The notes under the pieces are model-generated. The model had not been told where the DNA came from. It saw only the letters and a list, made by a program, of their open reading frames with translations, and did not search any database. DNA of 63,140 nucleotides, filler included, from Craspedostauros australis (lineage: Eukaryota): NCBI GenBank assembly GCA_030167865.1. It is 14 parts of 14 records of this genome, joined end to end, with 100 filler letters (N's around TTAATTAATTAA, not from the genome) between each part and the next. Parts side by side here need not be neighbours in the genome. Positions count along the whole stretch, not along the records: positions 44,524 to 46,201 come from JALAGF010002276.1; 13 more parts are not named here. One strand, written 5' to 3'. Numbering within the stretch: position 1 is the first letter of the stretch; each line of letters begins with the position of its first letter. This document shows, piece by piece, positions 1,857 through 63,140 of the stretch. The position numbers and the translations under genes were made by a program.

Positions 1857-4124
1857 CATCAGGCGGGAGGGCGTCGCCGAACAGCTGCGACGAGCCAATC
1901 CCTTCCACCTGACACATCCAGGGCTGAGCTGGACTCACACGCTGACACTTTCGCTTTTGGACCATCTGCTTACATTGTGCATCGTACCTCACAAACTGTC
2001 ACAACATCACCATTCTTGGACATATTGGGAGACGTCGAGAACGTGCCCATTGTCACAGCGGCAATTGCATATGATGATCCAATCTCGTACACGACTTACA
2101 TTCTCTTCTTTCCTCAATCGTTATACTTCGACAATTTACAACATCCGCTGTTGTGTCCACATCAAATGCGCATGGCTGGCGTTACAATCAATGAAACACC
2201 TCTCACGATGTTGCCGGAGGATAAGCGCCATGCACACTCACATTCTATTCTTCATACACATCACGATCTGCATATTCCTCTTCAGCTACATGGTACAGTT
2301 TCATACTTCCATATACGCAAACCTACACAGGACGAGATCAGGTCCGATCATGATTGCGTACACGTCTATATGACATCCGATCAGTATTGGGATCCAGCCC
2401 AGCTGTCGACAGGGGACGATGAGGCGTCCATCCGTACCAAGCTTGAGTCAGAAAAGCAGATGCAACACATTTCATCACTTACATGTCAACGCGAAATACA
2501 TTCCATTCAACATGCACGTACCTCCAATCGAAAGGGGACGATTACGCCAGAGCAGTTGGCGGCAAGATGGCGCATCGGTATTGAAGCAGCACGGCGCACG
2601 CTTGGCGTCACAACACAATTGGCTGTCAGAGATTTCAGTACGACAACGGGGACACGTCGTTTGGTTCCATATGCAATGCAGCTTCGATATCGCCGCCTCA
2701 ACACCAAGATGTACACGGATACGATGATCGCGAAGACAAAGTCCATACGCGGAAACAAGTGTGCCATGATCTATTGTACGCCGTTTCATTGGGTCCGAGT
2801 GTACCCAATGGCAGCCAGACGAGAAGCTGCACAGACACTTGACGAATTGTTCAGAGACTACGGAATTCCACATACCATGATACCAGATAATGCGAAAGAG
2901 CTTGTCGAGGGCGACTTCAGAGCGAAACTTCTCAAGGCTCAGGTCTCACTCCGACCGATTGAAGCCTACATTCACAATCAAAACAAGGCAGAAGCGACAA
3001 TTCGTGAGCTCAGGCATCACTACCGCCGGCTCATGACATCCACAAATACGCCAGCATACCTATGGGATTATTGCTTCGAGTATTGCGCCGAAATCCGAAG
3101 CAACACTGCATTACAAATCTACGATCTGCACGGTCAGACACCAACGACAATACTGACTGGCGACACAGCTGACATCTCACACATTTCTGAATTTGGGTGG
3201 TTCGACTTTGTGTGGTACATCAATCCACAAGATGCTGAAATGAATACCAAGCATCTCGGTCGCTACCTCGGTCCTTCAAGAACCGTGGGAGAGGCAATGT
3301 GCTCATATGTTCTCACCCAATCCGGCGTTGTTGTTTCTAAATCTTCTGTGATTCCTTTGTCCGTCGCCGACCAGAACAGTGAAGTGATCAAGCAGAGACA
3401 GGCCGATTACATGTCCAAGCTACAGTCGAAATGGAAAGACCGAATGGAAGGCATCCAACCTGAAGACGACGGCGATGACGTCGATGATACCGCCGAAGAC
3501 ATTGCTTTCCTCGAACAACAACAACCTTTGCAACCATTGTCAGATTCTGCAGATGCGGAGACTGATGCATACGATCGATATCTATCTGCACGAGTGTTAT
3601 TGTCCACTGGCGATGACATGCAGTACGGAACCGTGAAACGTCGCAAGCGCGATGCAAGCGGACAGTTGATTGGTCGTTCTCACACAAATCCTTTTCTTGA
3701 CACTTCTATGTACGAGGTTGAATTCATTGACGGACACAGCGAAGTCTACAACGCAAATCAAATCGCGAACAGCATATACGCACGGATGGATGAAGACGGA
3801 TACACGACACTACTCATGGAAGACATCATCGATCACAAGAAATTACCAACAGCAGCGAATGCCAGCGACACCACCACAACTAAGACGACCAAAGGATGGA
3901 AGCTATGTATACTATGGAAGGACGGGTCCACATCGTGGATTCATTTGAGAGACGCGAAGGAAGCCGACCCAGTCAAGACAGCCGAATACGCAGACATCAA
4001 CAACCTTGCTCATGAGCCCGCTTTCCGTTGGTGGGTTCCCTACACTTTGAAGCGACGAAACAGGATCATTATGGCAAACCAGAAACGATACTTCAGACGA
4101 AACGAAAAATATGGCCTCGAGTTG
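1857..4124 (+). CDS. Pol (protease-integrase-chromodomain-like), in frame with gag after TGA 1854-1856; 3' truncated
   Basis: The frame is open from 1857 (HQAGGRR...AELDSHADTFAFG) into the 1977 ORF. There is no ATG before the protease motif. Confidence 0.88.
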
Positions 4125-4224
4125 NNNNNNNNNNNNNNNNNNNNNNNNNNNNNNNNNNNNNNNNNNNNTTAATTAATTAANNNNNNNNNNNNNNNNNNNN
4201 NNNNNNNNNNNNNNNNNNNNNNNN
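4125..4224. other. Artificial contig spacer (one of 13: also 5643, 12839, 13982, 36778, 39191, 40332, 44424, 46202, 47792, 56296, 60206, 61698; each 100 nt)
   Basis: N-run + TTAATTAATTAA (stops in all six frames) + N-run, repeated identically. Confidence 0.99.
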
Positions 4225-5642: not shown

Positions 5643-5744
5643 NNNNNNNNNNNNNNNNNNNNNNNNNNNNNNNNNNNNNNNNNNNNTTAATTAATTAANN
5701 NNNNNNNNNNNNNNNNNNNNNNNNNNNNNNNNNNNNNNNNNNTC

Positions 5745-12756: not shown

Positions 12757-12838
12757 TGTCGAGATGTACATGTGAGTATATGTCAAGATGTACGTGTATA
12801 TGTGCATCGTTCACCCGTTATTCTCTCATACGCACTTG
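12757..12838 (-). repeat. 82-bp inverted repeat, right copy, abutting the truncated LINE 5' end
   Basis: Reverse complement of 5745-5826 with one mismatch. Confidence 0.95.
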
Positions 12839-13912
12839 NNNNNNNNNNNNNNNNNNNNNNNNNNNNNNNNNNNNNNNNNNNNTTAATTAATTAANNNNNN
12901 NNNNNNNNNNNNNNNNNNNNNNNNNNNNNNNNNNNNNNAATTACGTCTTCTCACGATGTTGCTAGTAGTACGATCACACGATTGATCGTATTCACTTGAG
13001 AAGGTCATGGCAAGATTCGCACATGTCGCACCCAAGATCCAAGTCTGTCCTGATTGGGCAGATTGGTTCATCTTGGCAAGAAATCAATTTCCGCGACATT
13101 TTGGAACTGTGTTTGACGGGAAAACGATTCCTGCGACGCGAAATGCGACACAAATTNGACACAACGGATTTTCGACCAAAATTTCCGTTCGGAACGGAAA
13201 AGGTAAGAAAAGTGGATATTTCTGATTGGTCGACGGGTGTCGCTATTGTTAGAGATTTAGCGTGCGCTAATAACTACTCCAGACGGACCAAGAGACCATC
13301 GATGTGAGGAGGCAAGCAACTACGCCGTCGTGCCAGCGTTGTGCTCAAGCGTTCCGGGGTTAGTACCATGTGCCAGACGCAAGAGCACGCGAAGTGCTAC
13401 TGGACAGCTCAAGCCGTCAGTGTGCAGAAGTGGCATCGCAATGGCAAGCACCACAGAGGCTTCTCTGGACGCACAGCTGCGAGATGTGGACAACAATGCA
13501 GCTTGAAGCAGACCAAGCGAGTATGCTAGGACTACGTACGACGAAGACGATAGCAGGAAACGAGAATCTGCATGTTGCTTGGTCACTAAAGGAGTTGTTG
13601 AACCACCCACCTGAATTGGCCTTTCACAGAAAACGCAAACATTGCTCAATCGGATGGAAGATAATACTTGAAAAAGTTCAATCTATTGGTTGTCCCCTTT
13701 GTTTGCGGATCCCATTGGTCTTGTTCGCGAGCTAGCTTAGTTAGATTCAACCAAGGAAACATGCACCTGGGACACTCGGCAGAAAGTCGGGAGTTGCTAC
13801 AACCGGAAACGTGTTAAGAAAAATAATATCATGATATTAATAATTGGTCATACATCATTGCCGCGTATTGCGTCAATTACTCCCTTGAGAGAACCTGGAG
13901 TCGTAACAGATA

Positions 13913-13981: not shown

Positions 13982-14551
13982 NNNNNNNNNNNNNNNNNNN
14001 NNNNNNNNNNNNNNNNNNNNNNNNNTTAATTAATTAANNNNNNNNNNNNNNNNNNNNNNNNNNNNNNNNNNNNNNNNNNNNCACGTTCTTTAGGCACTGG
14101 GACAACGTTTCCGGTGCACTCGTGCCGGTGTGGTCTGCTGCTAGGCTTGAGGCCTAGTTTTACATAATACATTTAATCGAGTTGTTCCGGTCACTGGGTT
14201 TTCCACCCAGCGACCGTGGGGGGGTGTCATAGTCTGGCCGACGTCAGTCTGGCACAGCTGTGTCTGCCTTCTCCACAACAGCAGAACAACCTCATAAATT
14301 CTCTGTTTCTCCATCTGACACAGACTCTCACACATGGGACGACCTCATCTTTGTTGCGATGGCCGTGTTTCTTGACGCTCGTCATTCTGCATCGTGGGTG
14401 ATGTCAACCCTTTCGGTTTGGGCAGGCATCGAACGGCAATCCCCCTCCCATACGATCCACGCCACCATGATGCAAACCGAGATCATCGAGAGTGCTGGAG
14501 AGAAATTCCCCACACCATACAATCCTGGCAAAGAAGACCAGACCCGTTGAG

Positions 14552-26912: not shown

Positions 26913-28056
26913 GAAGGCGGTGTAGTGGTGCGGGTATTGCTATGGGTGTTGGTCTGAGCAGGTCTGCGATTCCCAACGGATCGTTGCTCTCAGAAGCCAA
27001 CAGCAGAGAACAGTCAAATAACTTGTCTTGAAAATAATGCGGGATGTATGTGGAGTGCTTGGCTCTGATGTACTATCCTCCTATGATTGTATGGTGGTGG
27101 CTTCTGTCGTTTCGCTGTCTCGATTAGCATTGATGTCAACTGCCTCCGATGTTGCGTGTTGGCACTCTTCCTGGTGTTGAGGTCATTGTCGAAGTGATGT
27201 TGTCACCCCAACGGTTGCGCCTGGCAAATTGTGTCGACAACCGTCACGTTTTCCGTTCCGAATGGGAGAACATGATACTATCCGTGCTGTATACTTCGTA
27301 ACAAGCTGACATGCGGCGCCAAGGTTTGGTCGTGGAAGTCAGTGGTTGAAGGTACTTTTGGTAGTATCAATTTCGTTCATCCGTTGAAATCGAGATTGTG
27401 ACAGAAGGCGCACGAGGTTTTGGCGCCAAAAAACACGAAAAACGGGGGAAGATGTTGTTTGCAGAACATCGACGAAGCGGACGCGATCATTTTCGCCGAA
27501 GAACCAGACAAGCACAATAGTAACAAACACGAAAACAAACACGAAAACGAAATACGCTGCACACAACAGCACTAGGCCGAAGCGGAGGAAGAGCAAGAAG
27601 AAGAGAGCACCCACTGCTCGTGCTGACTCCGACGTTTTGCGGCATTCCACGCTCGCAGGATCCTCGGTCGTTTCCACGTTACAAGAACATAATATAATGC
27701 AATGATGACTTCCGACACCATCGCCCACGATCCACTTTCTCCTTCTGTGGCTGCCCACGCTGACGCCAAGGTCGATGGGGCAATCACAGAGCGGCATCGC
27801 GGCAACAATGTGAAATGACAAACATCGTGAAACAACAATCAACGTAATGCCATGCACGCTGCGTGAAACAGAACATGGGATACCACCCCCACCAACCATG
27901 AAGCAGAAGATGATTGCTTCATAAAAAACCAGACAGAGATGAGATCAAGGGACGACGATCAGCCAAACACTCATTCAATCACATCGAACAAGCCCGTCGC
28001 ATTGATCTGATCTCAACAACAAGTGTCATCCCTTTACGACACATACCAGCTCCATC

Positions 28057-30432
28057 ATGGTCTTCATCCTCCCTCGACTCGTTGTGATGTTCGCCTCACC
28101 ATTGCGAAACCACAACCATCAAGTCCGGACATCACTATCCACGGCCTCACCGTCTCTCTTTCCGCTCAAGTCGACCCCTGGTGATGCACCCCCGCCAATC
28201 ATCACCGATCAGGATCTCCTGCGCGCCGCAGAACAAGGAGATGTGGACACTCTCACCGCATGGAAGACAGCGTTTCCACAAACCTCCATCGACACGATCA
28301 AGGATCACCGTGACAAGACTTCACTCCACCTCGCATGCTCCAACGGCCAGCTTGAAACGATCAAGCAGCTGATGGAGTCATGCGGAGCGGACGCCAATAT
28401 CCAATCCATGAATGGAGAGACTGCGCTACACTATGCATGCGCACAGGGCAACGTCGACGTTGTGGAATACCTAGCCGGGGCGCATGCTGCAGATGTCAAC
28501 CTCCAGGATAACTCCGGGAAGGTGGCACTCCACGACGCATGTACCGAGGGACATGCGGCCATCGTGAAGACTCTGATCGAGTCATATTCTGCAAGTGCTC
28601 TCATGCAAGATGAGAAGGGGGAGAATGCCCTCCATGCCGCGTGTCTTCATGGGCGTTTGGATGTTGTGGAGTACCTCGTTGGATCATGTGGAGTGGAAAT
28701 CAATGTGCAGGATGATTTCGGCAATACTGCGATCCACGATGCGTGTCTGAAGGGTCATCTTGATATCTTGAAGTATGTGATGGAGACTCGTACTGTGGAT
28801 ATCGACGTCCAGAACGATGACGGCGATACCGCACTTCATGTTGCTTACAGAAATGGTCATTTGGATGTTGTCGAGTACCTGGTGAAGTCATGCAAGGCAA
28901 ATGTTCAGGTTGAGAATGACGCTGGCGGCACGGCTCTCCAGTCTGCATATTCCAAAGGTCATCTAGATGTTGTGAGATGGTTGGTGGAGTCAGATCAGGT
29001 GGACATCAATATCAAGGACGAGAATGGCGACACTTTGCTTCACTGCGCAAGTGCCGATGGTCACCTCGACGTTGTGAAGCGGCTGATTGAATCCGGTAAA
29101 GCCAATATCAACGCTGAGAACGACAAATTCGAGACCCTAATCTTCGAGGCATATCACAACAATCACTTCGACATTGTCAAGTGTCTGGTCGCAGCACCCA
29201 ATGCTGGTTTGAACGTAAAAGACCGTGCTAACAACACCGTTCTCCATCTCGCAAGTCGCGATGGCTATCTTGATCTTGTGAAGTGGCTGGTTGGATCCGG
29301 CAAAACCAATATCAACACTGAGAACGACGAGGGCAAGACTCCGCTCTTCAAGGCATATCGCAACAACCACTTCGATGTTGTCAAGTATCTCCTCGGAACA
29401 TCCAGCCTATATCCCAACTTCAGACGCACGGATGGCAACACCGTACTCCATCTCGCAAGTGGCGATGGCCATCTCGATGTTGTGAAGTGGGTGGTTGAAT
29501 CCGGCAAGGCCAATATCAACGCTGAGAACGACAACCGTGAGACTCCAATCTTCAAGGCATATCGTACCTATCACTTCGACATTGTCAAGTATCTGATCGC
29601 AGCACCAAATGTCGATCTGAACGTAAAAAACCAGGATGGCAACACCGTGCTCCATCTCGCAAGTCGCGATGGCCATCTCGATGTTGTGAAGCAACTGGTT
29701 GAATCCGGTAAGGCCAATATCAATGCTGAGAACGACACATACGAGACTCCACTCTACAAGGCACATCACAACAATCATTTCGACATTTTCAAGTATCTGT
29801 TCGCATCACCAAATGTCAATTTGAACGTGAAAGACAGGAATGGCAACACCGTGCTCCATCTCGCAAGTGGCGATGGCCATCTCGATGTTGTGAAGCAGCT
29901 GGTTGAATCCGGCAAGGCCAATATCAATGCTGAGACCAACAACTGGGAGACTCCAATCTTCAAGGCATATCACAACCATCACTTCGACATTGTCAAGTAT
30001 CTGGTCGCAGCACCAAATGTTGATTTGAACGTAAAAGACGAGGATGGCAACACCGTGCTCCATCTCGCGGGTGGCGATGGCCATCTCGACGTTGTGAAGT
30101 TGTTGGTTGAACAAGGCAAGGTCGATGTCAACATCAAAACCGGCGATTCTTGCAGCACTGCACTGCACTTTGCAAGCCTAAATGACAGACTGGAGGTCGT
30201 AAAGTATTTGGTGGAATCATGCAACGCAGAAATCAACATTACAAACAACGCTGGCAGAACTCCACTTTGGTGGGCAAGTTTGAATGGTCATTTGGAGGTG
30301 GTCAAGTATTTGGTGGAATCGTGCAACGCAGATATCAGCATCAAGACCGACTTGGACGACACTGCGGTGGACATTGCGAGAGAAGAGGGCCACACTGATG
30401 TTGTCAACTGCTTGACCACTCCTGCTTGGTGA
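28057..30432 (+). CDS. Ankyrin-repeat protein (about 21 repeats)
   Basis: Repeated GxTxLHxA...GHLDVVKxLV units; a 204-bp nucleotide-level tandem unit from ~29020 to ~30130. Confidence 0.95.
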   Translation: MVFILPRLVVMFASPLRNHNHQVRTSLSTASPSLFPLKSTPGDAPPPIITDQDLLRAAEQGDVDTLTAWKTAFPQTSIDTIKDHRDKTSLHLACSNGQLETIKQLMESCGADANIQSMNGETALHYACAQGNVDVVEYLAGAHAADVNLQDNSGKVALHDACTEGHAAIVKTLIESYSASALMQDEKGENALHAACLHGRLDVVEYLVGSCGVEINVQDDFGNTAIHDACLKGHLDILKYVMETRTVDIDVQNDDGDTALHVAYRNGHLDVVEYLVKSCKANVQVENDAGGTALQSAYSKGHLDVVRWLVESDQVDINIKDENGDTLLHCASADGHLDVVKRLIESGKANINAENDKFETLIFEAYHNNHFDIVKCLVAAPNAGLNVKDRANNTVLHLASRDGYLDLVKWLVGSGKTNINTENDEGKTPLFKAYRNNHFDVVKYLLGTSSLYPNFRRTDGNTVLHLASGDGHLDVVKWVVESGKANINAENDNRETPIFKAYRTYHFDIVKYLIAAPNVDLNVKNQDGNTVLHLASRDGHLDVVKQLVESGKANINAENDTYETPLYKAHHNNHFDIFKYLFASPNVNLNVKDRNGNTVLHLASGDGHLDVVKQLVESGKANINAETNNWETPIFKAYHNHHFDIVKYLVAAPNVDLNVKDEDGNTVLHLAGGDGHLDVVKLLVEQGKVDVNIKTGDSCSTALHFASLNDRLEVVKYLVESCNAEINITNNAGRTPLWWASLNGHLEVVKYLVESCNADISIKTDLDDTAVDIAREEGHTDVVNCLTTPAW

Positions 30433-36777: not shown

Positions 36778-36901
36778 NNNNNNNNNNNNNNNNNNNNNNN
36801 NNNNNNNNNNNNNNNNNNNNNTTAATTAATTAANNNNNNNNNNNNNNNNNNNNNNNNNNNNNNNNNNNNNNNNNNNNGCACGGACGATCGGAAGGGCCGT
36901 C

Positions 36902-38964: not shown

Positions 38965-40819
38965 AGAAAAATGTCGTGTAGATCGTGGTACGATTTCTAC
39001 GTAAGTCCCGAACAAAAACAGGCCAAAAACAGCATCAACCAAAGTTAAACTCTCCGGACTTAGCTCATGTGAGTGTTCCTGTACTCGTCTTGCTATTGTA
39101 GCATCATATAGCGTTTATATATACAATCCTGAAGCTTGGTGTCTGTTGCTCTCTTTCTCGGTGAGCACTGATGTGATCCGTCAAGCACCCNNNNNNNNNN
39201 NNNNNNNNNNNNNNNNNNNNNNNNNNNNNNNNNNTTAATTAATTAANNNNNNNNNNNNNNNNNNNNNNNNNNNNNNNNNNNNNNNNNNNNATGCCGCGCC
39301 CATTATGGATGCATCAGCGTGTCGCCAGGGAGTATGAGAATGCACGAGGATCACGTGGAGGGGCTGCAAGGATCGGATGAATGAGGTATGTATCCGTATC
39401 CGCGCCGCATCCAGATTGTGAATGGTTTTTTGACAACGCTCTTTTTCACTGCAGGGACACTTTGGGCCATGTCATGTGGGTATCTGTGGCCAAGCTTCAT
39501 GGAGTGGATAGATGGAGAGTATACCAAACCATTGTGGTGCGCAGTTTGCCAAAATACCAGGATGACGATGATGATCATGGGTGCTGATTGGAGGGCAACA
39601 TTGCTTGGTCGAGAATTTTGTGAATCCACCACACAACTGTGTGGTGGACCAACATGAAAATAAAAACAGCTTCAATATCAATTAAACTTCGATATTCTGT
39701 ATAAACACTAGTCAGGCGTATTAACGCACTGTTTAGATTTAATTGTAGACGATGTGTTGTTGAGATATAGCATGACAAGCAGATATTGGATGTGCTTTTT
39801 GGATGGACTCTAGACTCGATTAAGTAGCATGACCAGGCACCCACAAAACTCCACAACTAGTGGTATCGCGGTGACGCACAGCCATCACAAAATTTCCGTC
39901 TCATCATCCAACACAGCCTCACTTTCTGTGTTCGCCTTCATGGTGTGAGCATCACACCACCTCTGATTCTCCAATTCCTCTTCCTCTCTCTGCAACTCTT
40001 CTTCAATTCGTTCCTCCTCTGTTGCAGCTGGTGCATTGGAGGTTGCCACAATTACAGATGCTGTTGCTGTGCTTGTTGGGTTGGTGTTGGTGTTGGTNNN
40101 NNNNNNNNNNNNNNNNNNNNNNNNNNNNTGCTTCTTGTCCTTGCGTTGTTTGGCGTTGTACGCTGCAAACAACGACGCTTTGACGCGCATGGGATTTGCG
40201 TGCAGTTGTACGTACCAGTCCGTTTTGGTTTTTTCGTCCTTCATCAATTTCTCGTGTGCTTCGTGTTCGGACGGTCTGTTCTTCGGGTCCTTCGCGGACG
40301 CTGCGCAGATGTCCTTCAATTTGTCCGCGATNNNNNNNNNNNNNNNNNNNNNNNNNNNNNNNNNNNNNNNNNNNNTTAATTAATTAANNNNNNNNNNNNN
40401 NNNNNNNNNNNNNNNNNNNNNNNNNNNNNNNAGTCAATCAAGACTGACGAGTCGTGAATCAAAATTGAAATCAGATTAGTCAAGACTCAAACTGAAGTCG
40501 GATGAGTCAAGGTTCTAACTGGAAGTCTGATTAGTCAAAGCTCCAGTTGGAAGAATGATTGGTCAAGATTCAATCGTAAAAATATTTGCATATGAAAAGG
40601 GATATCGCCATCCAAACCCTGACCTCCATCCAAAACGAGAAGTCTAACAGAGAGTGGCGCAGGTTTGGGATAAGGCACAAACAACATGATCTCGAAATGC
40701 ATGAATACGATTGACAAGAGGTGCAGACAGCAGAAGGAAGAGAGATAGCTCAAGTAATCATAATTTTGATCTTACATCATCAACAACAACATTCATTATC
40801 ATTAGCAATCGTATGAACA

Positions 40820-43800
40820 TCAATCGTCCGCCGGCATAAGGCAGACTTGCCAACAATTGTTCCGCATGGGAACATGCTGGTCATGGAGCGTTCCATGCTG
40901 CTGCTCGACTGTGTCCAGCACGTTCGCGATGTATTTTTCGCATCCGACGCTCCATTTGCCTTTCGCATTCCTGGAATAGTTGTTGCCCAGATAGTATTTG
41001 GGTGGGCCAATGTCTTTGATGGTGTAGACTTGCTGGATGGACTTCATGTATTGATCTGGTTCTTTTGCCATGATCTTGAAGTCATCAACATGCATGCATA
41101 TGTAGTCATACCCAGTGTTGTCCCTCTGATTGATCCATACGTCCTGGTCATGCCATGATGGAGAGCACCCCACGGATGAGAGTGTGTTTGCGAAGTGAGC
41201 ATGGAATCTTTGCGTGCTCGATCGGAGTCCGTACAGCGCCTTCTTGAGTACGATTGTCTGACCCTCTCTGTGATAGAACTCTTTTCCTGCCCTCACGTAT
41301 ATCTTCTCATTAGTGTATGCATTGACAAATACGTTCCCCACATCGCTGCAGAGTTGCTTCAGCTTGTTTGCATCCGTGATGACATCGAGTATCCGTACAC
41401 TGGTTGATTTGACGGTTGATGAGTATACTCTAATGTCGTCAGCGAGTTAGGTGAGGTGACCGCCGGCTACCAGCCGCCCCTTGCGCCGCAGATCCTGTTT
41501 CATAGCAAAGATGAGCTGGAGCTTGGTGCTCTGGTAGTACGATGAAGGTTGGTGAGTGGATGGATGGAATTCAAAGCAATCGAGGTCGATCAGAGCGTCA
41601 ATCTCTTTCTTTGCTGCGTCCTTCCACAATGAGTTGCCATTGACTTTGTCAAGTTGGAGTGCGTGTCGCATATTGTGTGGCACTTCCACACCGTATTGGA
41701 ATACTGTAGCAAAGAAGTCCTTTTTTGGCTTCTTCTTTCCTGGTCGTTTGCGCCTCAGGATGGCGATGCTGGCGTTGTCGTCGACTGTGAAGATGTGTTT
41801 GCGTTCGATTCGTCGCATGCGTCTGCGTATCGCGCGAACAGTGTGTTTTGCCCATTTCAGTATTGTTGTTCACTGTCGATTGTGCCTGTCGTGCCTTTGC
41901 GGCTCGTAGGCGATGATGTATCGCACCACGAGCTTGGGATGGTCTGCCCTCAGGATGTTGTATCGGAACCATTGCGTCTCATTGTTGTCCCATTTCACAT
42001 TGAGGTGAAGGTGACCGTTGCGGAATGAGTGGCCTTCGATGGATGTATTTGCTGTTTTTTCGTATCGTCTTTTGCGATCTGATTTTGGAACATCTCATCA
42101 TGCTCGCGCTCAGCCAGAGTGTCGACACACCCCTGAATCCGCTGCTTGGGAGAATCCGGAATCCTCACTGCTTCAGAGTCATCGGATTCTCCCAAGATGT
42201 CCGCAGTCGAGAGATCATCTTCCCCGTCGTCGTCAGATATTGCGCCCGTGGGCCCGCTGTCGCGGTTGTCATCGTCATCGACGATGACATTTGGCTGACC
42301 GAACCATCGGTCTTCATTTGGAGGACTGTTTTCGCTGACCGCGACACCTCTGACCTCCGGTGGTCCTTCCTCAGGGATGCGAGCCCGCCGCCCCCGACCG
42401 CACGGTATTCGCGTCGATGGCCTCACGGATCTGTCGAGCGAGCTGCGCCGGCATCGTCTTGGTGCGCGCTCATTGGCCCAAGTTGCCTCTGGTAGTAGTA
42501 TGTATGAGATCGAGGCGTGCGATGCGTTGCACTTCCTCGTTGGTGATTTGCGGCGCCCTGGCGTCTTCCGCGATTCGTGGTTTCATGATGTTCCGCACCA
42601 GGGCGGTGCCCTTGGTTTTGTCGTCGCCTTGCGACGACCAGATGTGGTAGGTGAGGGTCTCCATGATCCCAAGCGATTCCCAGGAAGTATCCTGGCTTGA
42701 ATGAGTGATGTGGAAATTTGGTCATTGGCTCGAAATATCAGACTGGTTGAAACAACGTGAACCTGAACATGGAGATGTCTGGAGTGTTCCCTCGCAGCAG
42801 CTTGATGAGATTCTTCCACTGGATGCTCTCCTTCGCCATGTAGTTCCATAAGTCGATGGCGTGTTGCACCGCGTCGCACCAAAAGGTTAGAGGCACGGAT
42901 GCCACCTAAAGCAACTGGTATGCGTGGCGCTTGATGTCACCAATCGCCCGCTCTGCTTGGTTCTGATTCTGATTCATTGGAGCAGTGAAGGAGTGCTTGA
43001 TCATGTACCTCATCGTCACGGCCTTCCATGCCTTGCTGGCTTTGACCTGTGAGTAGTCCAAGATGAGTAGGTCAGGTGACCCAACCTGCATGATGAAATC
43101 AGTGAGCGCCCCTGGCGCCATTGCCTCTTGTCAGAGCGGCTTGGCCCAGATGAACTTGGACTCATTGTGCGTGAATAGCTGGAAGCACTTGTAGTGTTGA
43201 ATAAATGGGACCGTGGAGAAGAATGGATTGGTGTCCACTCTGCCCTTGATTCGGTGTGGCCGTAGCGCGCCGGCTCGCTTCGCACGGTACTGCCTTGGGA
43301 TGAGTCTTGACTCTGCCTTGATGGGAGTATCGGCCAGCTGGGTCGATGCTGCTTTCGTTTTCTCGACCACCTGTTGTGGGAGATGCCAGAAGACCTCGTT
43401 GAAGTCAGCACTGGTGTGGGGTCGCCAAAGGCGTCTGTGTCTGTCGCATATAGAAATATGCTTAGTTTGAGTTAGCTCGCGAGCTGTCAGTTTCCGAATT
43501 AGGATGCGCAGGGTATTGCTGTCGTGATTGGCCAGCGAGATGCTGATGTCGCCAGACGATATCCGTTGCTGCCTGTCGTGTTGTCGAAGCCAATCGTAGA
43601 TGCTGATGTCGGACGCACGCATGTGGTGTGTATTGAACAGCGATTCCATCTGCTGTGGATGCTTGTCGAGAGCCATGAAATATGCCTTGATGAGGATCAC
43701 TCCGCCTTCTGGCGGCTCGTACGCTGCCACTGAAACGTCTCTATCTGCGAGTCCACTGTCGCCCCTCGGGCGTGGAACTGCTGCTGGTGATTTCGGGTTA

Positions 43801-43870: not shown

Positions 43871-44523
43871 ATTCAATACTCTTGACCGTCGAATTGTGTG
43901 CTCTGTATGCTGTTGGCAAGTTCTGCTCACGGAAGCCTACGATCGTGGAAGACGGTATTGTTGATAGTCGTTCTGTTTGCTATTTCATTACGTTGGCACT
44001 CCGATCCTCTCGGTGTCCGTTCTCTTGCCCGATGCTCTCAGCGCTTCAATCTGTTTCGTAGATTCAGTCTCCGACTGAGTCGGTGTGCGTGATACTCTCT
44101 CGCTACTCTTCGTATTCTCTCTCTCTCTCTCTTAATATCACGTGCTCGTGCTACGCGATACTCCGTTCATTCACTACTGGTTCCTACTCCATGAGTACTC
44201 ACCATTTGAAGTTCACCTTCTGTATCCATGATGCTGATGCCCTTCGGTCATCGGATCTTTGCCTCCTGCTCTGACCTGGAGACAGATGTCGACGTGGTGA
44301 CATGATGACATCCTGTTGACGTCAGTAGGCGGCCTTCTACTCTCCAGATGTCACGTTCCATTGGTGATGCAGGAGTCTGTCAGATGATATCGTCATCTGA
44401 GGTTTAGTTGGGAAGTACCTCGANNNNNNNNNNNNNNNNNNNNNNNNNNNNNNNNNNNNNNNNNNNNTTAATTAATTAANNNNNNNNNNNNNNNNNNNNN
44501 NNNNNNNNNNNNNNNNNNNNNNN

Positions 44524-45525
44524 GTCCAGAGAGAAGTCCATCTTGCCGGTGGTGAGGCTCATGTTGGTTTGGAGAGCGTCGGCGTCGTCGAGAGCGCGAC
44601 AGAGGTCATTGTCTGGAGCGATGGCTTCACGCAGCCATTGCATCTTCCAGTCGTCGGCGACTGGGCTGTCTTGGACCTCCTCCAGGTCGTTCACCTTCGA
44701 CAACCAGCTGTTGACAAATGTCTCACGGCTGCTGTTCCAGGTGTTGTTGAGCTTCAGGTTCCTGATCTCGGCTTGGATCATCTGGGCCTTGTTGGTCGCC
44801 GCTACGCCAGAGGCGTACTCCTCCTTCAACATCATGTAGACGCCATGTCCATCCTCCTTGTCGGCGTACGGCAAGAGACAGTTGCGGCTCTTCATGGTGC
44901 GAAGAGAGTTCGAGAGAACATAGTACAGGAACGTACGTTGCTCTTCAAACAGGGCGAGCTCTTCACTCGCTGGCAGGTGCTCCGGATCGACGGCGTTCTT
45001 GATTCCATGAGCTGCTGCGGTGGCTCGGAGACGGCGATCGAACTGCAGGAACTGCTCATCGTTCTTCAGGGTCGGGTTGTCGCTCAGGTTGCGCTTGGTG
45101 CCACGCTTGAAGGCCGCGACATCGTCCGAAGATGGGGTAGACGAGGGGACCACGTCCGGTGTGGGCACTTCAGCCACGGTTGTCTTCGGTTCTGCCTTCT
45201 TCTCCTTCTTCATGAAGGTCTGAAGGCGAGCTGCGTTCAGCTCAAGCCAGGTGCTGGCTTCCATGCCTCCTTGGCTGTCGTACCAGCGCTCCAGCGCAAG
45301 GATCTTGCGCACATGCAGTGCGGCAAGGTTGCAGTCATAGGGTTCGCTACCCTCCTTGGAGATGGTGATGCGGAGGCCGTCCAGGTCCTCCTTCGTCAAC
45401 AGCGTGAGGTCGTCGATGTCCTCTATGCCTGATGAGGTGATGACTCGACGCTCGTCGGAGTCGTTCTTGATCCCAACCGCCTTGAGGGCGTGGTTGAGGA
45501 TGTCCAGTGGGTTCGTGGATGTCAT
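44524..45525 (-). CDS. Gag of a CoDi-like copia element; 3' truncated by the contig end
   Basis: AAFKRGTKRNLSDNPTLKND, DGHGVYMMLKEEY. Lies downstream of the PBS/LTR. Same strand as the pol in the neighbouring contig, so possibly the same element. Confidence 0.8.
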
Positions 45526-45740
45526 CTTGGAGATGATCGGGTTCGTTCTGTCTCTTCACAGCGGATGCGCTCGGGTGATGAGGGTTCGGTGTGTTGGCAA
45601 CAGGCTGTTGCGGACTCGTTCAATGCAATTGCGGTTCGGGTGCTATCACGTCGTCACGTGATGCTCGTTCGGTCAGCTGGGATGAAGCTGTCTCGGGTTG
45701 GGGTTGTTCGTTCACTCAGTCAGCTAGGGACGTAGAGTAT

Positions 45741-45754
45741 TGCGACTGTTAATC
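45741..45754 (-). promoter_or_regulatory. Primer-binding site complementary to the anticodon arm of tRNA-Asn(GUU)
   Basis: The minus strand reads ...GTCTAACA|GATTAACAGTCGCA. The + strand TGCGA-CT-GTT-AA-TC reads as an Asn anticodon stem-loop. Confidence 0.7.
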
Positions 45755-46163
45755 TGTTAGACTTGAGGAATTGGTGGTAACGTAGGGTAGAACGCGTCCT
45801 TCTGCAATTGATCAGATCGAGAAGGGGGCGTTCACTGGAAGTCTGTTGGGAACTCAAATGTTATTACAAACTTAAGAGTTGTGAGCTTACTCTCTGACCT
45901 CTGTTCATGTCCATGCCTCTGCTCTTGCATTCCTCTGTTCTGCATGCATCGGATAGGATCTTTACATCTCTTCAGGTTCAACTGGTTTGGGTCAGTAGCT
46001 ATCTCACAGTATCGTTCTTGTTTCATGGTACCTTGTATCTGATACCCAATACCTTGGTACTTCTTTAGTTTCGTTTCTCGTTGAGCTATTCGCTCGTAAT
46101 GTGACCATTTCATGGTCCGTGTTGGTTCAGGATACGATTCATACGCACAACTAAGCTCGAACA
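45755..46163 (-). repeat. Putative 5' LTR of the second copia element
   Basis: TGTT at 45755 adjoins the PBS. A candidate AACA end lies at 46160-46163. No second LTR in the window confirms the outer boundary. Confidence 0.5.
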
Positions 46164-46309
46164 CGAGAGAGAGCTGTGCGGAATAAAGCATAATGCTAAT
46201 ANNNNNNNNNNNNNNNNNNNNNNNNNNNNNNNNNNNNNNNNNNNNTTAATTAATTAANNNNNNNNNNNNNNNNNNNNNNNNNNNNNNNNNNNNNNNNNNN
46301 NATTTTGGA

Positions 46310-47791: not shown

Positions 47792-48870
47792 NNNNNNNNN
47801 NNNNNNNNNNNNNNNNNNNNNNNNNNNNNNNNNNNTTAATTAATTAANNNNNNNNNNNNNNNNNNNNNNNNNNNNNNNNNNNNNNNNNNNNGGTTGACGG
47901 CCCATGGCACATCGCCCTGCATCACATTACATCACAATACATCACATCACTCTCCACACAACAAGAGTTTTGTGTTCACACCAACGATTCTGTGCGAGCA
48001 CAAGGTAGAGTCACTCTCCATAAATTTGAGAATCGCGAACAAGGCCCAAACGACGGAAGAAAAAAGAACGTTATGGGACGAATGACCACTGCGACTCAAT
48101 TGAAGCGCCAACGAGCACCGTCGCGTCTGTGCGTTATTCACCTAATAGGTAGATTTACCATGAGTTTTAGCCCTCCATAACTCTTAAAATATAACGCCTT
48201 CAAGAGGTATAAGGTGTTCAATAGAAACCTAACATTGATTGTAAGAGATATATGCAATTTGATACCCGATCCGTGCTGCGATGCCAACTTGGGCGTAACC
48301 TTTTCGCTCACCGGGGTCATAACACGGGAACTCACTCCAACCGATTCCACGGTATGTCGGACTAGCATAGCTTCTTCAGTTGCGCCATGGTCGATCTGTC
48401 AAGGAGATTCTGGAAAAAAGATCACATCTGCCAAGTCAATCCCGCGAAGGGATTTGTCTTGACTCAACAGGATTGGTTGTCGAAGGTATCTATCGGTCGC
48501 CGTGCAGACAAGATCCTGGCGGTCGGATGAATCGAGGCGGTCATCAGAAAGACCAACGACGAAACGCGAAAACTTCGCGACGAGGAGACACGTGCCAAGG
48601 AGCCAGTCACAGAATCCGTTCTGTCCAACTCAGCGCACAAACACACAGACGCGAGAACCCTCTTTCTGTCTCTCGTCTCTCTTGTTGGACGTGATCGGGC
48701 TGCAGACACCTCTCCATCGCACCATACCTGCTCTGGGCATAGTAGTCCGCGCCACGAGGAGACCTGGAAGACGCAAAGAGGAAGATCCAGCAACGAAACC
48801 GACGCATCCTCATTTACTCGCACATACTCCACAAAGTGGAAGAGCACAATTGCAGCGAGTGCGAGGAACG

Positions 48871-51386: not shown

Positions 51387-51459
51387 TGGACATTGCCGGA
51401 ATCGAACCGGCGACCTTATGCATGCTAAGCATACGCGCTACCAACTGCGCCAAACGCCC
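51387..51459 (-). tRNA. trnA-AGC: tRNA-Ala(AGC), copy 1
   Basis: 73-nt cloverleaf; acceptor GGGCGTT/AATGTCC with G3:U70; anticodon arm TATGC-TTAGCAT-GCATA; GGTTCGATTCC; T-run 3' of the gene. Confidence 0.96.
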
Positions 51460-54715: not shown

Positions 54716-54788
54716 GGGCGTTTGGCGCAGTTGGTAGCGCGTATGCTTAGCATGCATAAGGTCGCCGGTTCGATTCCGGCAATGTCCA
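54716..54788 (+). tRNA. trnA-AGC: tRNA-Ala(AGC), copy 2
   Basis: Identical to copy 1; followed by TGTTTT. Confidence 0.96.
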
Positions 54789-55733
54789 TGTTTTACCGTA
54801 ATTTTGGACCGTATTGGTTTGTCCTGTTGGAACAATTCGAAATCTCGCCAGACCATCTTGTCTTCCGACCCCGCGGACCAAGCACAACAGTAGTCTGAGA
54901 AATGCGCACTGGGTGCGTTCTGTTTTGCTCGTAGAAACAGATTCTCCGCCTCGCCGACCTCCCCCTTGCTCTTCGTGTTACATTTTCCTTACCGATGGAT
55001 GAACACCTGCATGTAGAAGACGATCGAAAAATCGCAAGTCGGAGCACTGCCGCGGCACCTTCGTACGCCTAACACCAACCACGAAAAAACTGCGATGCCG
55101 TGTTTCGTTTGGTGGTGATGGTGGTGGTAGAACGAATAGGCTGACGTGCCAAGCTGCGATTGAAACTCTCGGATCGGTTTCACCGTGTGCGAAGATATTC
55201 CTCATGTACCATCCTGTCGCACGTGGGCAACCAAAGCACCCCGTGTGTTCTGAGTACAGCACAGCGCTTCACTCCACCTCACCATCATTCAGGGACCAGG
55301 GCAGCTGAGCAGAGCATGCAAGAGCTCGTGACATAACAGAGAATGTCTCAGCTCTCTCTAGAACTTGCACATACCTGCTGGCTGCGGGTGAGGACAACTT
55401 TCCAGATGCATATACTCGTCCTCCATGGCATAGTGCGAGCAGGTGACTCCACCGATGTTCAAAGAGCTCTGATCTCCAGAGCGCGCTGTTGCGTCAATCG
55501 AACAAGGTGACGGCTCATGAGACGATGCTCCTCTTCTCGTTGTTGCTCTTGCCGCCAGAGAGTGCCGCCATTGACGATGGGTCTGATGGAGAGGTGGACC
55601 AAAAATGAATGGGGTGGAACCTGTGGTACCATACAAATACGAACTGATCGCTCCAATGGACAAAGCGTACGTTCTGGCGGAGCGGACTACAACAGCAACA
55701 TCTCCACAGGGTACGATGTCGTCGAGCAAAAGG

Positions 55734-55806
55734 TGGACATTGCCGGAATCGAACCGGCGACCTTATGCATGCTAAGCATACGCGCTGCCAACTGCGCCAA
55801 ACGCCC
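55734..55806 (-). tRNA. trnA-AGC: tRNA-Ala(AGC), copy 3 (one D-loop U->C change)
   Basis: Same cloverleaf; TTGGCAGC instead of TTGGTAGC (position 55787); followed by CCTTTT. Confidence 0.95.
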
Positions 55807-58800
55807 CCACTTCTGTGGTTGTACTTTTGCTGGCGGCAATTTGCAAAACTGACTTTATAAATGCTACACGTGCGCCATTGACCATGTTCCCCAGTGGCCA
55901 AGGCACGAGCAGCATGGGAGGACACAAGCAATCCACCAAAGCCCTCTTGGCGACACTTGATGACACACTGCTTTGGTGGATCATGGAAATGCGTGTTGTA
56001 CAGGAACGAAGCATGAACAATGATGGGAGCAGTTCAAGGCCATCCAGAGAGCAATAGCTCGTTGACCACTCCGACCTGGTGATGAATGATGTCTCCTCGA
56101 GTGACACGAGCTAGTGTGTGCTGCTCTAGGGTATTATACGTCACAAGTGCATGTTATCAGTATGTACTGACATGCACAATTGCTCTAGTATGGTATGAGA
56201 ATGATAACAGGATGAGAAGAGCATGGCAAGAGCATGGCAACGTACACAAGTACTCTGTCATATGACTACTCTTGTTGGCAAGTTCCATGGACGGANNNNN
56301 NNNNNNNNNNNNNNNNNNNNNNNNNNNNNNNNNNNNNNNTTAATTAATTAANNNNNNNNNNNNNNNNNNNNNNNNNNNNNNNNNNNNNNNNNNNNTAGGA
56401 CCAACAGGATGCCTCCATAAGTTCTTCGAAGGAAGACTTGTTCTTCATCGATGTCAAAACGTCGCATGTGGCTTTCTCGCGTCTGGGTGACAAAATTGTT
56501 CTTGGGTGTCGAATTAGTCGTACTAGTCGATTTTCGTTTCCGCTGCTTTTTGCCGGGTGTCCCAGTCGGCATATAGCCCCATGACTGGTTTGGACGCAAA
56601 AAGCGCGAAAATCGTGAGGACACAACACGACAAACACACGACGCGAAAGGACACGATACTTTTGATCTCCACAAAATTAGAGTAACACTCGGCAAGTGAG
56701 GAAGGTGGTTTCCGAGCAACGACACAACTGCCGGGGCCCTTTCGCCGATCACGAGCAGAGCGAAGGGTCTTGCCGGCAGGAGAGACGCATTGATGTGGAT
56801 GTCCTGTCGGTGTGCTGCTGCTGAAGTGGATCGAAACAATACCGTTGCAGTTGTCGAAACGGACGATTTGGCTTCACTTCCGCTGTGATGACGGCGGACA
56901 GGTACGGACACGGGTAGCTTGCAGGTTGACACTTCACATCAAGTTGCTCTACAATTGCCATGTCGCAACGAAGGAATACAACGAGCTAGAGTATGGTACG
57001 AGCTATGGTAGAGTACAGCGGTTGCGGGTGCACGCACGAGTTAGGGGAAGGGAGCTAACCAGTCGCAAGACGCTCCGCTCCATGTGCGGTAGTTTGCATC
57101 TTGGTAGTTGTGTCTCTCCCAAGTACGTAAGTACGAGTGAGTCGTGGGCGAGTTGTTCCTCTGCCGCTCCTATGCGGTTTTGCTGTCTGCGATTTCTTGG
57201 TTCCTCTTCTCGCCTCGCTCGCTCTGGTTGATGTGACACACGCGTCAGGACGCACTCGCAGAGACACGGGAGATAGGAAAAGCTGATGGATGGGGTTGAT
57301 GGATGGAGTTGATGGATGTCGCCTTGAGCAGGAAACGGCATCGCGCAGGAGAAATGGAGAAATGCGAAAGATGCAACGGCGGAACTGAGATTGACGCCCA
57401 TCATAGTTGTAGGTCGTTGGCCGTAGCTGGCTTTGCGGCCCAACCCCAGCAGACGCATCTCCCAGCTGGCATCTTGAAGACGAGATGGAACGGATCTCGG
57501 GAGGAAGATGGCGCACATGAGAAGCGTCGCAAAGCAGACGCACAGGACAGGCGATTCTGAATTGGACGTACGCAAGTGCATTCGATACGAATGACGCCAG
57601 GAAGGGAGCGAACGCCAGTCCACTATCATGGGGGTTTATAGTTGTTCCTTGCTACAGCGCGAAGTACGAATGTGTGTGGGATGGTGCTTGAAGGGCAGTA
57701 GCAGGATACGCAGTCCACCAATAGAAGCCATGTGCGTCATGTTGGGGGTCGGACAGGAAATGGGAACATGGGAACTGATAAATTCTGGAAAACGGAAGTG
57801 ACGCATGGATGTGCGTGCGTGAGCAGAGTCCGCGGTGATGGATTCCTTTGTTTCGTGCATGGCGGGTTGATGTGTGTGATGCGTGCGCACGCAAGACATG
57901 GCGTACTCAACACGATGTCGATGGCATGGCGCAGAATGCCGGTGCGAGCTCTTGGTGTGGCAGCGTCGGAAATCCCCAAGAAACACCCCCTCGTACGTCG
58001 TGCGTCATTCATTCCACAAGAACATCGAACCAATGAATTGCGTCTGTCTACGAAGGAACACCAATAGCAATTTCCCATCTGGCGACCAGTTATGAAATCT
58101 TGACGTCAGTGCCGTCGTAAATATCTCGGTTAAAGAATCTAAGAAGCAAAACGGAATGACCATAATTGAGAATGACACCTTGATTGACACCTTCGTTGAT
58201 GGAATCGATCTGTTCCGCCCAGATGCCCTCGTTCACCAACAAATCTCAACAAGAGCACGAAGGAAGCATCAACGAACATCAACAGACCCCGACCTCCATC
58301 CGACGTGTACAGCGTTGTTGTCACGGCTGTCATGATTCTTGTCGCTCCTCTCTTCTCAGCCGTACAATCAGGGAGTACCGCGGAGTGGGAACACCACACG
58401 AATTCTTACGCTGGGGTTTGTCTTTGTCCCCAACTTGTGCTCAATCATGCAGAGAGCAGCGTGTCGCATGAGAGACAGAGCAAGTGCGGTTGTGATACGA
58501 CTAGTCCTCCTTTGTTGATGTGCCTCGTTGATAGATCGCAGAGAGCTGGGTGGAGTAGAGCGAAGTACTCTGGTGTGGATGCATCACTTGGAGCATCACG
58601 ATAATCCACAAGAGTGTCCACACCACCCGCCAAACACATCTGGGCAACAGGCAGGCCAAACCGACAATCGGCAGAGCAGCACAGAGCAGCGAATATCAAA
58701 CGAGTACCAAACGCACGAGTACCCAACCCACGAGTCCACTCTTGGCGTTCCCGTGGTTTGTTATTGTGCTTCGTGTTTGTGCCAAAGACAGCTGGCAAGA

Positions 58801-60156: not shown

Positions 60157-61310
60157 TCCCTCACCCACATGTCGCTGTTCGCAGCCGATTGGACGACAGA
60201 AAGAGNNNNNNNNNNNNNNNNNNNNNNNNNNNNNNNNNNNNNNNNNNNNTTAATTAATTAANNNNNNNNNNNNNNNNNNNNNNNNNNNNNNNNNNNNNNN
60301 NNNNNGCATAATATTCTGCAATAACCTGAAAACGCATGTAGACTGCTCCCCCCGCGACTCGTTGGTTTGTGACTGAATGGGCTCTTAAGGGATAGTTCCC
60401 AAGGTGAGGTGTGAGTCAGGTCGGTCATGCTTGAGTCATGATGGATTCGTGAATGGAGGAGAGAGAGGAGAAACGATTTGGTGGTCAATCAAGTCGGAAG
60501 ATTTCGCGCCAAAACAAGAATTTCTCCCATCGGGTTGATACCGTGTTCGGTAATAGTCTGTCCCTCATTGAATCTCAACTTAATCTACGGACCGAGAGGA
60601 ATCTAACGTCAGCGGGAACACGAGGAGCAGAACATGAACGTCAGAAGAGGAGCAAGACCAGATATATATGGATGAGAGGAACCAATTAGGTAAGACGTTA
60701 GGATTAGAGACTGAAGCAATCGAGTTCCTGAATCTCTGTCTGACACAACCAAGACCAAATAAGACAACAACACGACGAACTGCGGGTAACTGGCGCAGGT
60801 CGAGGATTCACATCGCGGTGGATCGTTAGGAATTAGGAAATGATCTGACTCAATAGGAGTCAGAACTACACGAGTTTGCAGGGCAACTGGAGATTGACAT
60901 GAGTTGACTTTTGACAGACAAGTCGAGCTCATAAAACGCAGAGAAAGAGGAATCACCAACCTACAAACCCGGGATAACAGAACAACTAACTTAGTGAACC
61001 AATTGTAGCCCCACCCGGTCTACATGAGCAACAGGATTGAGACCTGTTTCAACAGATGTGGACGTGAATCCCAACGCAGTCACCTGCACCTACGTCTCGA
61101 AAGCCTCGCTTGCCGACTTCGTCCTGCCTTGGTGGTTGCAATGCCTCCACGGTCTTGAGGGACCAGAGAAGAGTATGTGTGGCCAGCACTGCAAGTGTGC
61201 CCGCTAACCTCATTGTGGAGAGGACCACATGTGATAGTCGTATGTGTGAGTGCCCTGGCTCCTCTGCCAAGTATTGTGGAGTAATTGAGTATTATTATGA
61301 ATACATGCGT

Positions 61311-61697: not shown

Positions 61698-61797
61698 NNN
61701 NNNNNNNNNNNNNNNNNNNNNNNNNNNNNNNNNNNNNNNNNTTAATTAATTAANNNNNNNNNNNNNNNNNNNNNNNNNNNNNNNNNNNNNNNNNNNN

Positions 61798-63140
61798 AAA
61801 CTCAAGAACAGAGGAGAAGAGATGGTGTTCATTGGATATGCACACCAACATGCATCAGGGGTCTACAACATGTACAGACCACCGACCAAGTCACTCATCT
61901 GTTCACGAGACATCAAGTGGCTCAACCAATCATACGGACAGTTCCGTGGCTGGGCACCAGCACCAANCATATCCAANGAAACAGGAACNACGGACGCAGA
62001 CGGCTTCACAACCATCGGACGGAAGGGAGCAACGCCAAGGACGGCAACGCGTCAAACATCGGAAGCGAAGAGAGTATCTTTCGCTGACAGCAACAGGTAC
62101 TACATCCTATCAGATAGCGATGATGAGGATAATGAGGACGACGGAATAGTGACTCAACTAATCCAAAATAACGAGAAGGATCGGAGCGAATCTAATCATG
62201 AGGATGACGAAATCCTACCCTCCGGCGACGAAGCCGATGACGAGATAGGTGTCACTCCTCCGAACACACCAGGGAGGTCTACACATGATACACCATCCAA
62301 ATCTCCACCAAGCAAACCAAGCAAGCGTGACATAGCTAGAAAGGAGAGGATCCGACGTCACGAAGCACGAGGCAGAAAGGGAGAAACTAATCCCAAGTCA
62401 ACTACAGGGAAGAGCATTCCCAGAGCTCTGCGCGAGCTCGCAGACTTCAACGAACGAGGTCGAAAGGAAGAAGGCTATGAGAGTGATCCATCATCCAACG
62501 AGGCGAGTGACGAACTCAGCGACGAGATGATCGACGACTCCAACAACGAAACTACAGATGATGAAGAAATCGAAGACAAAGACGAAGAGATCGAGATCAC
62601 TCATCATAGCACAACAGGACTGTACGGAATGAATGCAATCATCACCGAATCACCAGCGATCGACATCGGACTGTCGATGCAGGACGAAAACAAGGAACCA
62701 GAGAAGCACATCGAACCTACAACGTTCAACGGAGCCTTCAATCATCCAGATCCTATCCATCAGAAGGGATATCGAGCAGCCATCAAGAAGGAGTTCGACT
62801 CCATGGATATACGAAAGGTATACAGCAAGATCAAACGAGACGCCATCCCACGCGGCCGCAGATGCTGCAAGTGCAAATGGGTCTTCAAGCTGAAGCGTGA
62901 NNNNNNNNNNNNNNNNNNNNNNNTTGCATGTGGCTATTCACAAGTCGCAGGAGTAGACTTCCAAGAGCATTACTCACCCGTCATCCATGACGTGACCTAT
63001 CGGGTCATGATGGTGACTATGCTAATCAAGAAGATGGACTGCGCACTCGTCGATGTCGTAACGGCATTCCTACATGGAGACCTCGACGAGGAAATCTACA
63101 TGAACTGTCCCAACGGGATGGATCATCAACCAGACGAAGC
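61798..63140 (+). mobile_element. Ty1/copia pol fragment: integrase C-terminal SH3-like region, acidic linker, N-terminal RT; open to the window end
   Basis: One frame from 61798, absent from the ORF track because it has no stop: KLKNRGEEMVFIGYA...SRDIKWL; EPTTFNGA; AIKKEFDSM; CKWVFKLK; ACGYSQVAGVDF; DVVTAFLHGDLDEEIYM. Confidence 0.92.

Follow-up and report, generated by a model that had tools for sequence, protein, structure and literature searches.

The genus Hemivirus within the Pseudoviridae is defined by half-tRNA priming (PMC8515867). In Drosophila copia and yeast Ty5 the primer is a 5′ fragment of the initiator tRNA-Met, the anticodon stem of which is cleaved (Kikuchi 1986 and Ke 1999, cited in PMC10886601). 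Among plant copia elements, a half tRNA-Ile was assigned to Bianca and a half tRNA-Met to Osser, Bryco and part of Gymco-II (Neumann 2019, PMC6317226). The fungal element FunCo1 has the site ATTAAGAGTCT, which is complementary to an internal part of tRNA-Lys (PMC5445492), and for the fungal Helenus TRIMs and Copia elements of rust fungi anticodon-loop sites for the Tyr, Ile and Asp tRNAs and for initiator tRNA-Met were described (Kojima 2024, PMC10886601). Anticodon-loop priming by tRNA-Asn-GTT was also reported for fungal Helenus, where this tRNA was chosen once (PMC10886601), and in the sequence file of that study the internal parts of Helenus-3_PGr and Helenus-2B_PSt begin with cGATTAACAGTCGAA. 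Plant and fungal copia-type elements with half-tRNA sites for Ile, Lys, Tyr, Asp and Asn-GTT have already been published (PMC6317226, PMC5445492, PMC10886601). For the CoDi groups of diatom copia elements (Maumus 2009), the word tRNA is absent from the main text of the paper, and PBS is used there only for a buffer (PMC2806351). In the literature searched, no report of the site described below was found for diatom elements, and the papers containing the site string were, judged by title, not on retroelements.

Here, a candidate half-tRNA site, GATTAACAGTCGCA, is described from a 63,140-nucleotide (63-kb) stretch of DNA of Craspedostauros australis, hereafter the window. The locus resembles copia and Ty5 in that the site abuts the LTR, does not start with TGG and is complementary to an anticodon stem-loop, and in that integrase precedes reverse transcriptase. 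It differs from them in the tRNA, which judged by sequence is Asn(GUU) and not initiator Met. As in Hemivirus-type elements, the site follows the LTR and is complementary to an internal part of a tRNA that extends as far as the anticodon stem, with the tRNAs compared being viral and the adjacency to the LTR being taken from relatives. The plant copia lineages are similar in that their half-tRNA type is lineage-wide and includes a non-Met tRNA (PMC6317226), whereas both the tRNA and the hosts are different; that survey lists tRNA-Asn by a match to its 3′ end, and its half-molecules are those of Met and Ile. The FunCo1 site is very similar and has the same register (ATTAA-anticodon-AGTC), but it corresponds to Lys(CUU) in fungi instead of Asn(GUU); one relative analyzed here, locus L136, carries a tRNA-Lys(UUU) version. 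The 12 nt of the Helenus site cGATTAACAGTCGAA are the same as here. However, the Helenus elements are short, non-coding and from rust fungi, and have one spacer base, whereas the site described here belongs to a large coding copia family of a likely stramenopile host and has no spacer.

A copia-type fragment with a candidate primer-binding site

The window is composed of 14 contigs, which are joined by N44-TTAATTAATTAA-N44 spacers (4125-4224, 5643-5742, 12839-12938, 13982-14081, 36778-36877, 39191-39290, 40332-40431, 44424-44523, 46202-46301, 47792-47891, 56296-56395, 60206-60305 and 61698-61797), and contigs that are neighbors here need not adjoin in the genome. The site is located within a contig of 1678 bp (44524..46201) and all features described for it are on the minus strand. 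The 3′ part of a putative 5′ LTR (45755..46201, 447 nt), which is cut by the contig end and ends with ...AAGTCTAACA / ...CCTCAAGTCTAACA, is directly followed by the candidate primer-binding site GATTAACAGTCGCA (45741..45754), the complement of tRNA-Asn(GUU) positions 27-40. An untranslated leader (45526..45731) connects the primer site with a gag ORF of 334 codons (44524..45525), which is open to the contig end.

On the minus strand the junction reads ...ttcctcaagtctaaca|GATTAACAGTCGCA|atactctacg..., with ...GTCTAACA directly before GATTAACAGTCGCA. The CTAACA occupies positions 45760..45755 and the 14-mer positions 45754..45741, leaving zero spacer nucleotides, and TGG is absent from the ~60 nt that follow the LTR-end CA. 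The original prediction of an LTR-like CTAACA followed without a spacer by GATTAACAGTCGCA is borne out by this reading, and it also correctly described the lack of a TGG start, which was checked over these ~60 nt, and the position of the gag ATG, which was found at 45525 in front of 334 open codons, 215 nt from the end of the 14-mer.

No second copy of the LTR could be found in the window, and no GGGAG+TGTTAGAC-like site, i.e., a polypurine tract followed by an LTR start, is present in it. Paired LTRs and a polypurine tract are missing from the window because the assembly is fragmentary. Since the LTR is partial and lacks a second copy, its end is not definable from the window alone. Therefore, with both the LTR 5′ end and the second LTR missing, the LTR edge in the window was assigned by homology with relatives.

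The gag frame gave no Pfam match, but 958 relatives were detected with HMMER in a representative library at E≤0.001. A word-index search with gag yielded no match in the size range of 183-585 aa and a single longer protein, P0001. This is a polyprotein of 1823 aa with a copia-type reverse transcriptase domain, and gag aligns to its residues 1-325 (45537-44545). In the next contig (40432..44423) a degraded pol was identified, the frame of which is broken into short ORFs. It contains an integrase-like region (42657..43391, minus strand; tblastn to P0001 residues 727-976, 29% identity) and a copia-type reverse transcriptase (40889..41710, minus strand; residues 1225-1497, 36% identity), and Pfam RVT_2 was detected on 40820..41446 with E=2e-12 and 47.6 bits, compared to a cut-off of 31.6. 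On the minus strand, P0001 residues 1-325, 727-976 and 1225-1497 are thus encountered in this order at 45537-44545, 43391-42657 and 41710-40889. A protease part was not found between gag and integrase, and the pieces are located in two spacer-joined contigs. Judged from this colinearity, gag and the degraded pol of the next contig are taken to belong to one fragmentary minus-strand LTR retrotransposon of the Ty1/copia type. Both the copia-type reverse transcriptase and the order of integrase before reverse transcriptase are present. The two TG...CA LTRs and the polypurine tract were not seen in the window, but the relatives show a GGGGAG tract and TG...CA repeats.

The element shares with the diatom CoDi groups (PMC2806351) that it is copia-type and from a stramenopile alga, and the commonest recorded phylum in the protein-atlas cluster nearest to gag is Bacillariophyta, with the phylum being known for only three members of that cluster. 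A cluster look-up of ten relatives gave no names. When viral contigs were searched, no gag relative was obtained, and the pol alignment gave 52 pattern matches of which 0 were confirmed.

Several other features were observed in the window. A second, different copia-like element is located at 897-4124 on the plus strand, where 1611-4028 aligns to P0001 residues 414-1192 with 24% identity; its ORFs (897-1856 and 1857-4124) gave no Pfam match, a possible gag ATG lies near 437, and no GATTAAC-type site preceded by CA or TA was found on its strand. A third copia-type pol piece (61798-63138, plus strand) runs off the window end and was recognized by RVT_2 (E=2.6e-14) and by a weak SH3_retrovirus match below the cut-off; in the preceding contig no gag was seen on the plus strand. 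An open frame of 1855 aa on the minus strand (7215-12782) resembles a non-LTR retrotransposon; its matches to RVT_1 and to the endonuclease/exonuclease/phosphatase family are weak and do not reach the Pfam cut-offs. Five to seven tandem units of 204 nt, which are 60-80% alike, are found at 28999-30341 on the plus strand inside a frame of 808 aa (28006-30432). For a glycosyltransferase gene in the neighboring contig, the commonest recorded phylum of the look-alike clusters is Oomycota. Together with the Bacillariophyta cluster of gag, this gives a lead to a stramenopile host, possibly a diatom.

Complementarity to the anticodon arm of tRNA-Asn(GUU)

Even with two mismatches allowed, the window has a single copy of the 14-mer. 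This single occurrence is not significant by itself, since 26 of 100 shuffles gave at least one match with up to two mismatches. The weight of the 14-mer lies in the identity of the matched sequences and in its conservation. When viral contigs were scanned with the 14-mer, at least 121 matches at at least 120 loci were obtained, and among the matches listed its reverse complement, TGCGACTGTTAATC, was situated inside tRNA-Asn(gtt) genes, as called by ARAGORN, in 66 of 121 cases. The register was the same in all such genes among the matches listed, namely ...AGAGCG|TGCGACTGTTAATC|GCRAGG. The paired part of the tRNA comprises the stem positions 27-31, the loop positions 32-38 with the anticodon GTT, and positions 39-40, and the core of the site, GATTAACAGTC, is the complement of tRNA-Asn positions 30-40, GACTGTTAATC. 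That the complement of the 14 nt corresponds to tRNA positions 27-40 with anticodon GTT had been proposed at the outset and is confirmed by these ARAGORN tRNA-Asn(gtt) genes among the viral matches listed. As the viral genes were found via the 14-mer itself, they prove that such arms are common, and not that the host has one.

The window contains no tRNA-Asn gene; its only tRNA genes are three tRNA-Ala(AGC) genes at 51387-51459 (minus strand), 54716-54788 (plus strand) and 55732-55806 (minus strand), which lie within 4.5 kb, and two of them are part of an 87-nt repeat with 95% identity. A tRNA gene or a tRNA-derived SINE at the site itself was considered and rejected, since no tRNA and no Rfam match was found in the contig. 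A generic scan for anticodon-arm signatures had a high chance rate and was used as a pointer only.

The base before the motif is A, and position 41 of the matching tRNAs is G. The furthest possible 3′ end of the primer is all that can be fixed from sequence. On the other side of the motif, a possible extension of the primer site, A-TACTCTAC (45732..45740, minus strand), could pair with the 3′ side of the D arm (GTAGAG) if a one-base bulge is allowed; the window copy has six of eight matches at offset 1. The D-arm complement ((G/T)TAGAGCG) was matched at six or more of eight positions in 8 of 24 motif regions, the window included, compared to 226 of 20000 control 10-mers (1.1%), with the qualification that four of these eight (L122, L132, L135 and L143) carry one shared motif region. 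In L126, seven of eight positions are matched. An extension of the primer site into the D arm may be considered as weakly supported.

The core and the LTR edge in metagenome relatives

Relatives of the element were collected from metagenomes with an alignment of six polyproteins, which gave 611 pattern matches and 375 confirmed relatives, of which 78 loci were kept. The pol of these loci shares 35-57% identity with P0001, and their gag does not exceed 30% identity to that of the window. In 23 of the 78 loci the core GATTAACAGTC was found, with a total of 24 occurrences; all of them are on the pol strand and the opposite strand has none, compared to ~0.09 occurrences per strand expected by chance in 382 kb. 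Each occurrence is preceded by ...CA or ...TA.

A census upstream of gag was performed on the 32 loci that have a gag match and at least 250 nt of upstream DNA. The exact core was present in 19 of them, 47 to 1411 nt before the estimated start of gag, and 1-2-nt variants of the site were identified in another six (L121, L138, L146, L173, L184 and L188). One locus, L136, has a site of the tRNA-Lys(UUU) type, and no site was recognized upstream of gag in the remaining six (L127, L128, L130, L149, L160 and L183), although L128, a permuted contig, has a site variant at its opposite end. The exact core was also found in L140, L158, L171 and L187, which have too little gag or upstream DNA and are outside the census. 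Only the 11 nt opposite positions 30-40 are invariant among the relatives. The bases opposite positions 27-29 are GCA in seven, GTA in seven, TTG in three and others in seven of the 24 motif regions that include the window, and this variability might reflect either variation of the host tRNA or an absent constraint.

Some of the variants have one or a few extra bases beside the base opposite anticodon position 34 (GATTAACAAGTC, GATTAACTAGTC, GATTAATCAGTC, GATTAATCAGGTC and GATTAACAACTGTC). They were observed at L121:99, L138:543, L146:2171 and 9442, L188:247 and L128:7343, in every case directly after ...CA. No nameable tRNA loop fits the variants of this type, and as a guess they could form a bulge opposite a modified base 34.

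In a FastTree phylogeny of 34 polyproteins, for which an ORF of at least 1000 aa was required per locus, all major branches include loci with the Asn site, which does not form a cluster, and the branch lengths are 0.1-1 changes per site. This tree has local support values only and one row on a long branch, and was used only for the coarse spread of the site; the loci labeled as site-less in it are mostly without a 5′ region or have an unrecognized variant. ORFs of 1800-1950 aa are kept in many of the motif-bearing loci, and therefore the site belongs to intact-looking elements.

The site of L136, located at L136:318, is GATTAAAAGTCTGG, the complement of the tRNA-Lys(UUU) anticodon arm in the same register. 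Of 119 viral matches to GATTAAAAGTCTGG, 43 were inside tRNA-Lys(ttt) genes. The LTR start of L136, TGATATATT, which follows GGGGAG, and its LTR end, AATATATCA, are perfect mirror images over 9 nt. One lineage, represented by L136, thus appears from its sequence to have switched to tRNA-Lys(UUU) in the same register, which is new.

The position of the motif relative to the LTR was analyzed in the relatives. Terminal repeats obtained by self-BLAST of the metagenome contigs were mostly assembler overlaps or circular permutations and not bounded LTR pairs. Since bounded LTR pairs are rare, a test based on the polypurine tract and the inverted repeat was used. In the examples, the end of pol is followed by a purine tract ending in GGGGAG, to which TG... 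is joined. The 8 nt immediately preceding the motif were compared with the 8 nt after GGGAG, and an inverted repeat with at most two mismatches was scored. A loose purine filter gave many false candidates, and the strict GGGAG test with shifted controls was relied on. An inverted repeat at the motif edge was found in 19 of 27 motif-bearing loci, compared to 0-5 of 27 when the frame was shifted by 1-20 nt either way. Therefore, the base that directly follows the LTR is the first one of the motif in this family. The junction of the window, CTAACA|GATTAACAGTC, resembles that of L158, where ...CTCTAACA| precedes an identical motif.

Two kinds of repeat-containing contigs were observed among the relatives. 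The contigs of L121, L122, L123, L133, L134, L136, L149, L159 and L161 are 6.5-7.7 kb long and their ends overlap by exactly 77-127 nt with 100% identity. They are assembler circles with one LTR and the internal part, and represent either collapsed LTRs or one-LTR circles. In L146, a direct repeat of 1.66 kb (1561-3216 and 8833-10487, 99% identical) holds the LTR, the primer-site variant and a leader of ~1 kb, and this contig seems to hold a tandem or an element duplicated in part, and not a simple pair of LTRs.

Priming by a tRNA-Asn fragment and its alternatives

A conserved half-tRNA-Asn primer site abutting the LTR is well supported by the match to the anticodon arm, the conservation and the LTR-edge position in the relatives. 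It is quite likely that the site serves as primer-binding site for a 5′ fragment of tRNA-Asn(GUU) with its 3′ end at position 40 or before. The 14 nt would pair with the anticodon stem's 5′ strand, all of the loop and the two initial bases of the 3′ strand. Because a paired 3′ end has to be offered to reverse transcriptase at the LTR edge, a cut 5′ fragment of tRNA-Asn would have to serve as the primer. The cut would lie no further than position 40, within the anticodon stem's 3′ strand or before it, and the mechanism would be that of Drosophila copia and yeast Ty5 with initiator tRNA-Met. We infer that the host has a tRNA-Asn of matching sequence, which would be cleaved and would then act as the primer. 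Position 37 of such tRNAs carries a bulky modification that hinders pairing, and the same holds for the proven tRNA-Met case.

Several other explanations for the site were weighed. A mere chance resemblance to the tRNA-Asn arm, with the real primer site being elsewhere or lost in a dead fragment, would agree with the fragmentary state of this copy, the degraded pol in the adjoining contig and the insignificance of one occurrence in one window (26 of 100 shuffles with up to two mismatches). However, the core recurs in 23 of 78 distant relatives with 24 versus 0 occurrences by strand, it is found at the LTR edge in 19 of 27 loci versus 0-5 of 27 in shifted frames, and no TGG follows the LTR. The branch lengths of 0.1-1 contradict the view that the relatives are one recent clone; this explanation is close to refuted and can hardly be credited. 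It is also very improbable that the element primes itself as Tf1 and the plant TAR lineage do, with the 5′ end of its own transcript folding onto the site and being cut to yield the primer. Self-priming is known for some LTR elements (PMC6317226, PMC5445492), and the complement could sit in the missing 5′ part of the window LTR. On the other hand, the 1678-bp contig contains no complement of 7 nt or longer to the site and the next 6 nt, and the site equals the arm of tRNA-Asn and, in L136, that of tRNA-Lys. Moreover, the site is invariant while the LTR ends of the relatives differ, which points to one conserved outside partner and not to co-varying LTRs.

The partner might be another RNA that shares the 11-14 nt, e.g., a precursor that is not cut or a tRNA-Asn from an organelle. 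All kinds of tRNA-Asn, whatever their origin, have the loop CTGTTAA, and the matches used are viral, but the primers of the known cases are cytoplasmic tRNAs packaged in the particles (PMC8515867) and the D-arm extension fits the same tRNA type, which makes another RNA a poor candidate. A role other than priming would mean that the motif binds tRNA-Asn or another factor for packaging, dimerization or translation control, while DNA synthesis is started from another primer. The start of DNA synthesis cannot be placed by a sequence, and in the fungal GalEa elements a conserved hairpin of unknown role is found in place of the primer site (PMC5445492). Against this, in 19 of 27 loci the motif begins immediately behind the LTR, the one place where the minus-strand primer must end, no alternative site was seen, and the arrangement equals that of copia and Ty5, in which priming was demonstrated (cited in PMC10886601). 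A role other than priming is hence regarded as improbable, and the binding of a cut tRNA-Asn as primer is preferred.

Copia/Ty5-type priming with a non-Met tRNA had been put forward in the original prediction. The mechanistic part of this proposal holds insofar as an anticodon-arm site is conserved at the LTR edge of the relatives; its novelty was overestimated, as an Asn-GTT half-site is in print. The proposed link between retrotransposition and tRNA-half production found no support and is speculation. The complementarity reaches position 40, which is in the 3′ strand of the stem, and stress-induced tRNA halves are usually cut in the loop.

It is concluded that the mechanism, which is uncommon but known, is not a new one and that the known picture of priming is unchanged. 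What is new, and modest, is that a large group of coding copia elements has the site as a family-wide and probably ancestral hallmark, as suggested by its spread among the relatives. The string CA|GATTAACAGTC provides a simple sequence hallmark for a large, so far unnamed copia family that is present in many metagenomes. With this family, tRNA-Asn would join the tRNAs that are used as half-molecule primer by a whole coding copia lineage, and a host RNA is named whose cleavage would bear on when the elements can copy themselves. A more far-reaching idea, which is speculative and at present rather unlikely to hold in full, is that a whole deep-branching copia family of stramenopiles, probably diatoms, depends on one cut of tRNA-Asn(GUU) at the 3′ side of the anticodon stem. 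Retrotransposition would then be gated by the supply of this fragment, e.g., under the nutrient stress that is known to activate diatom copia elements, and lineages might escape by a change of one loop base to tRNA-Lys(UUU) or by one-base bulges beside anticodon position 34.
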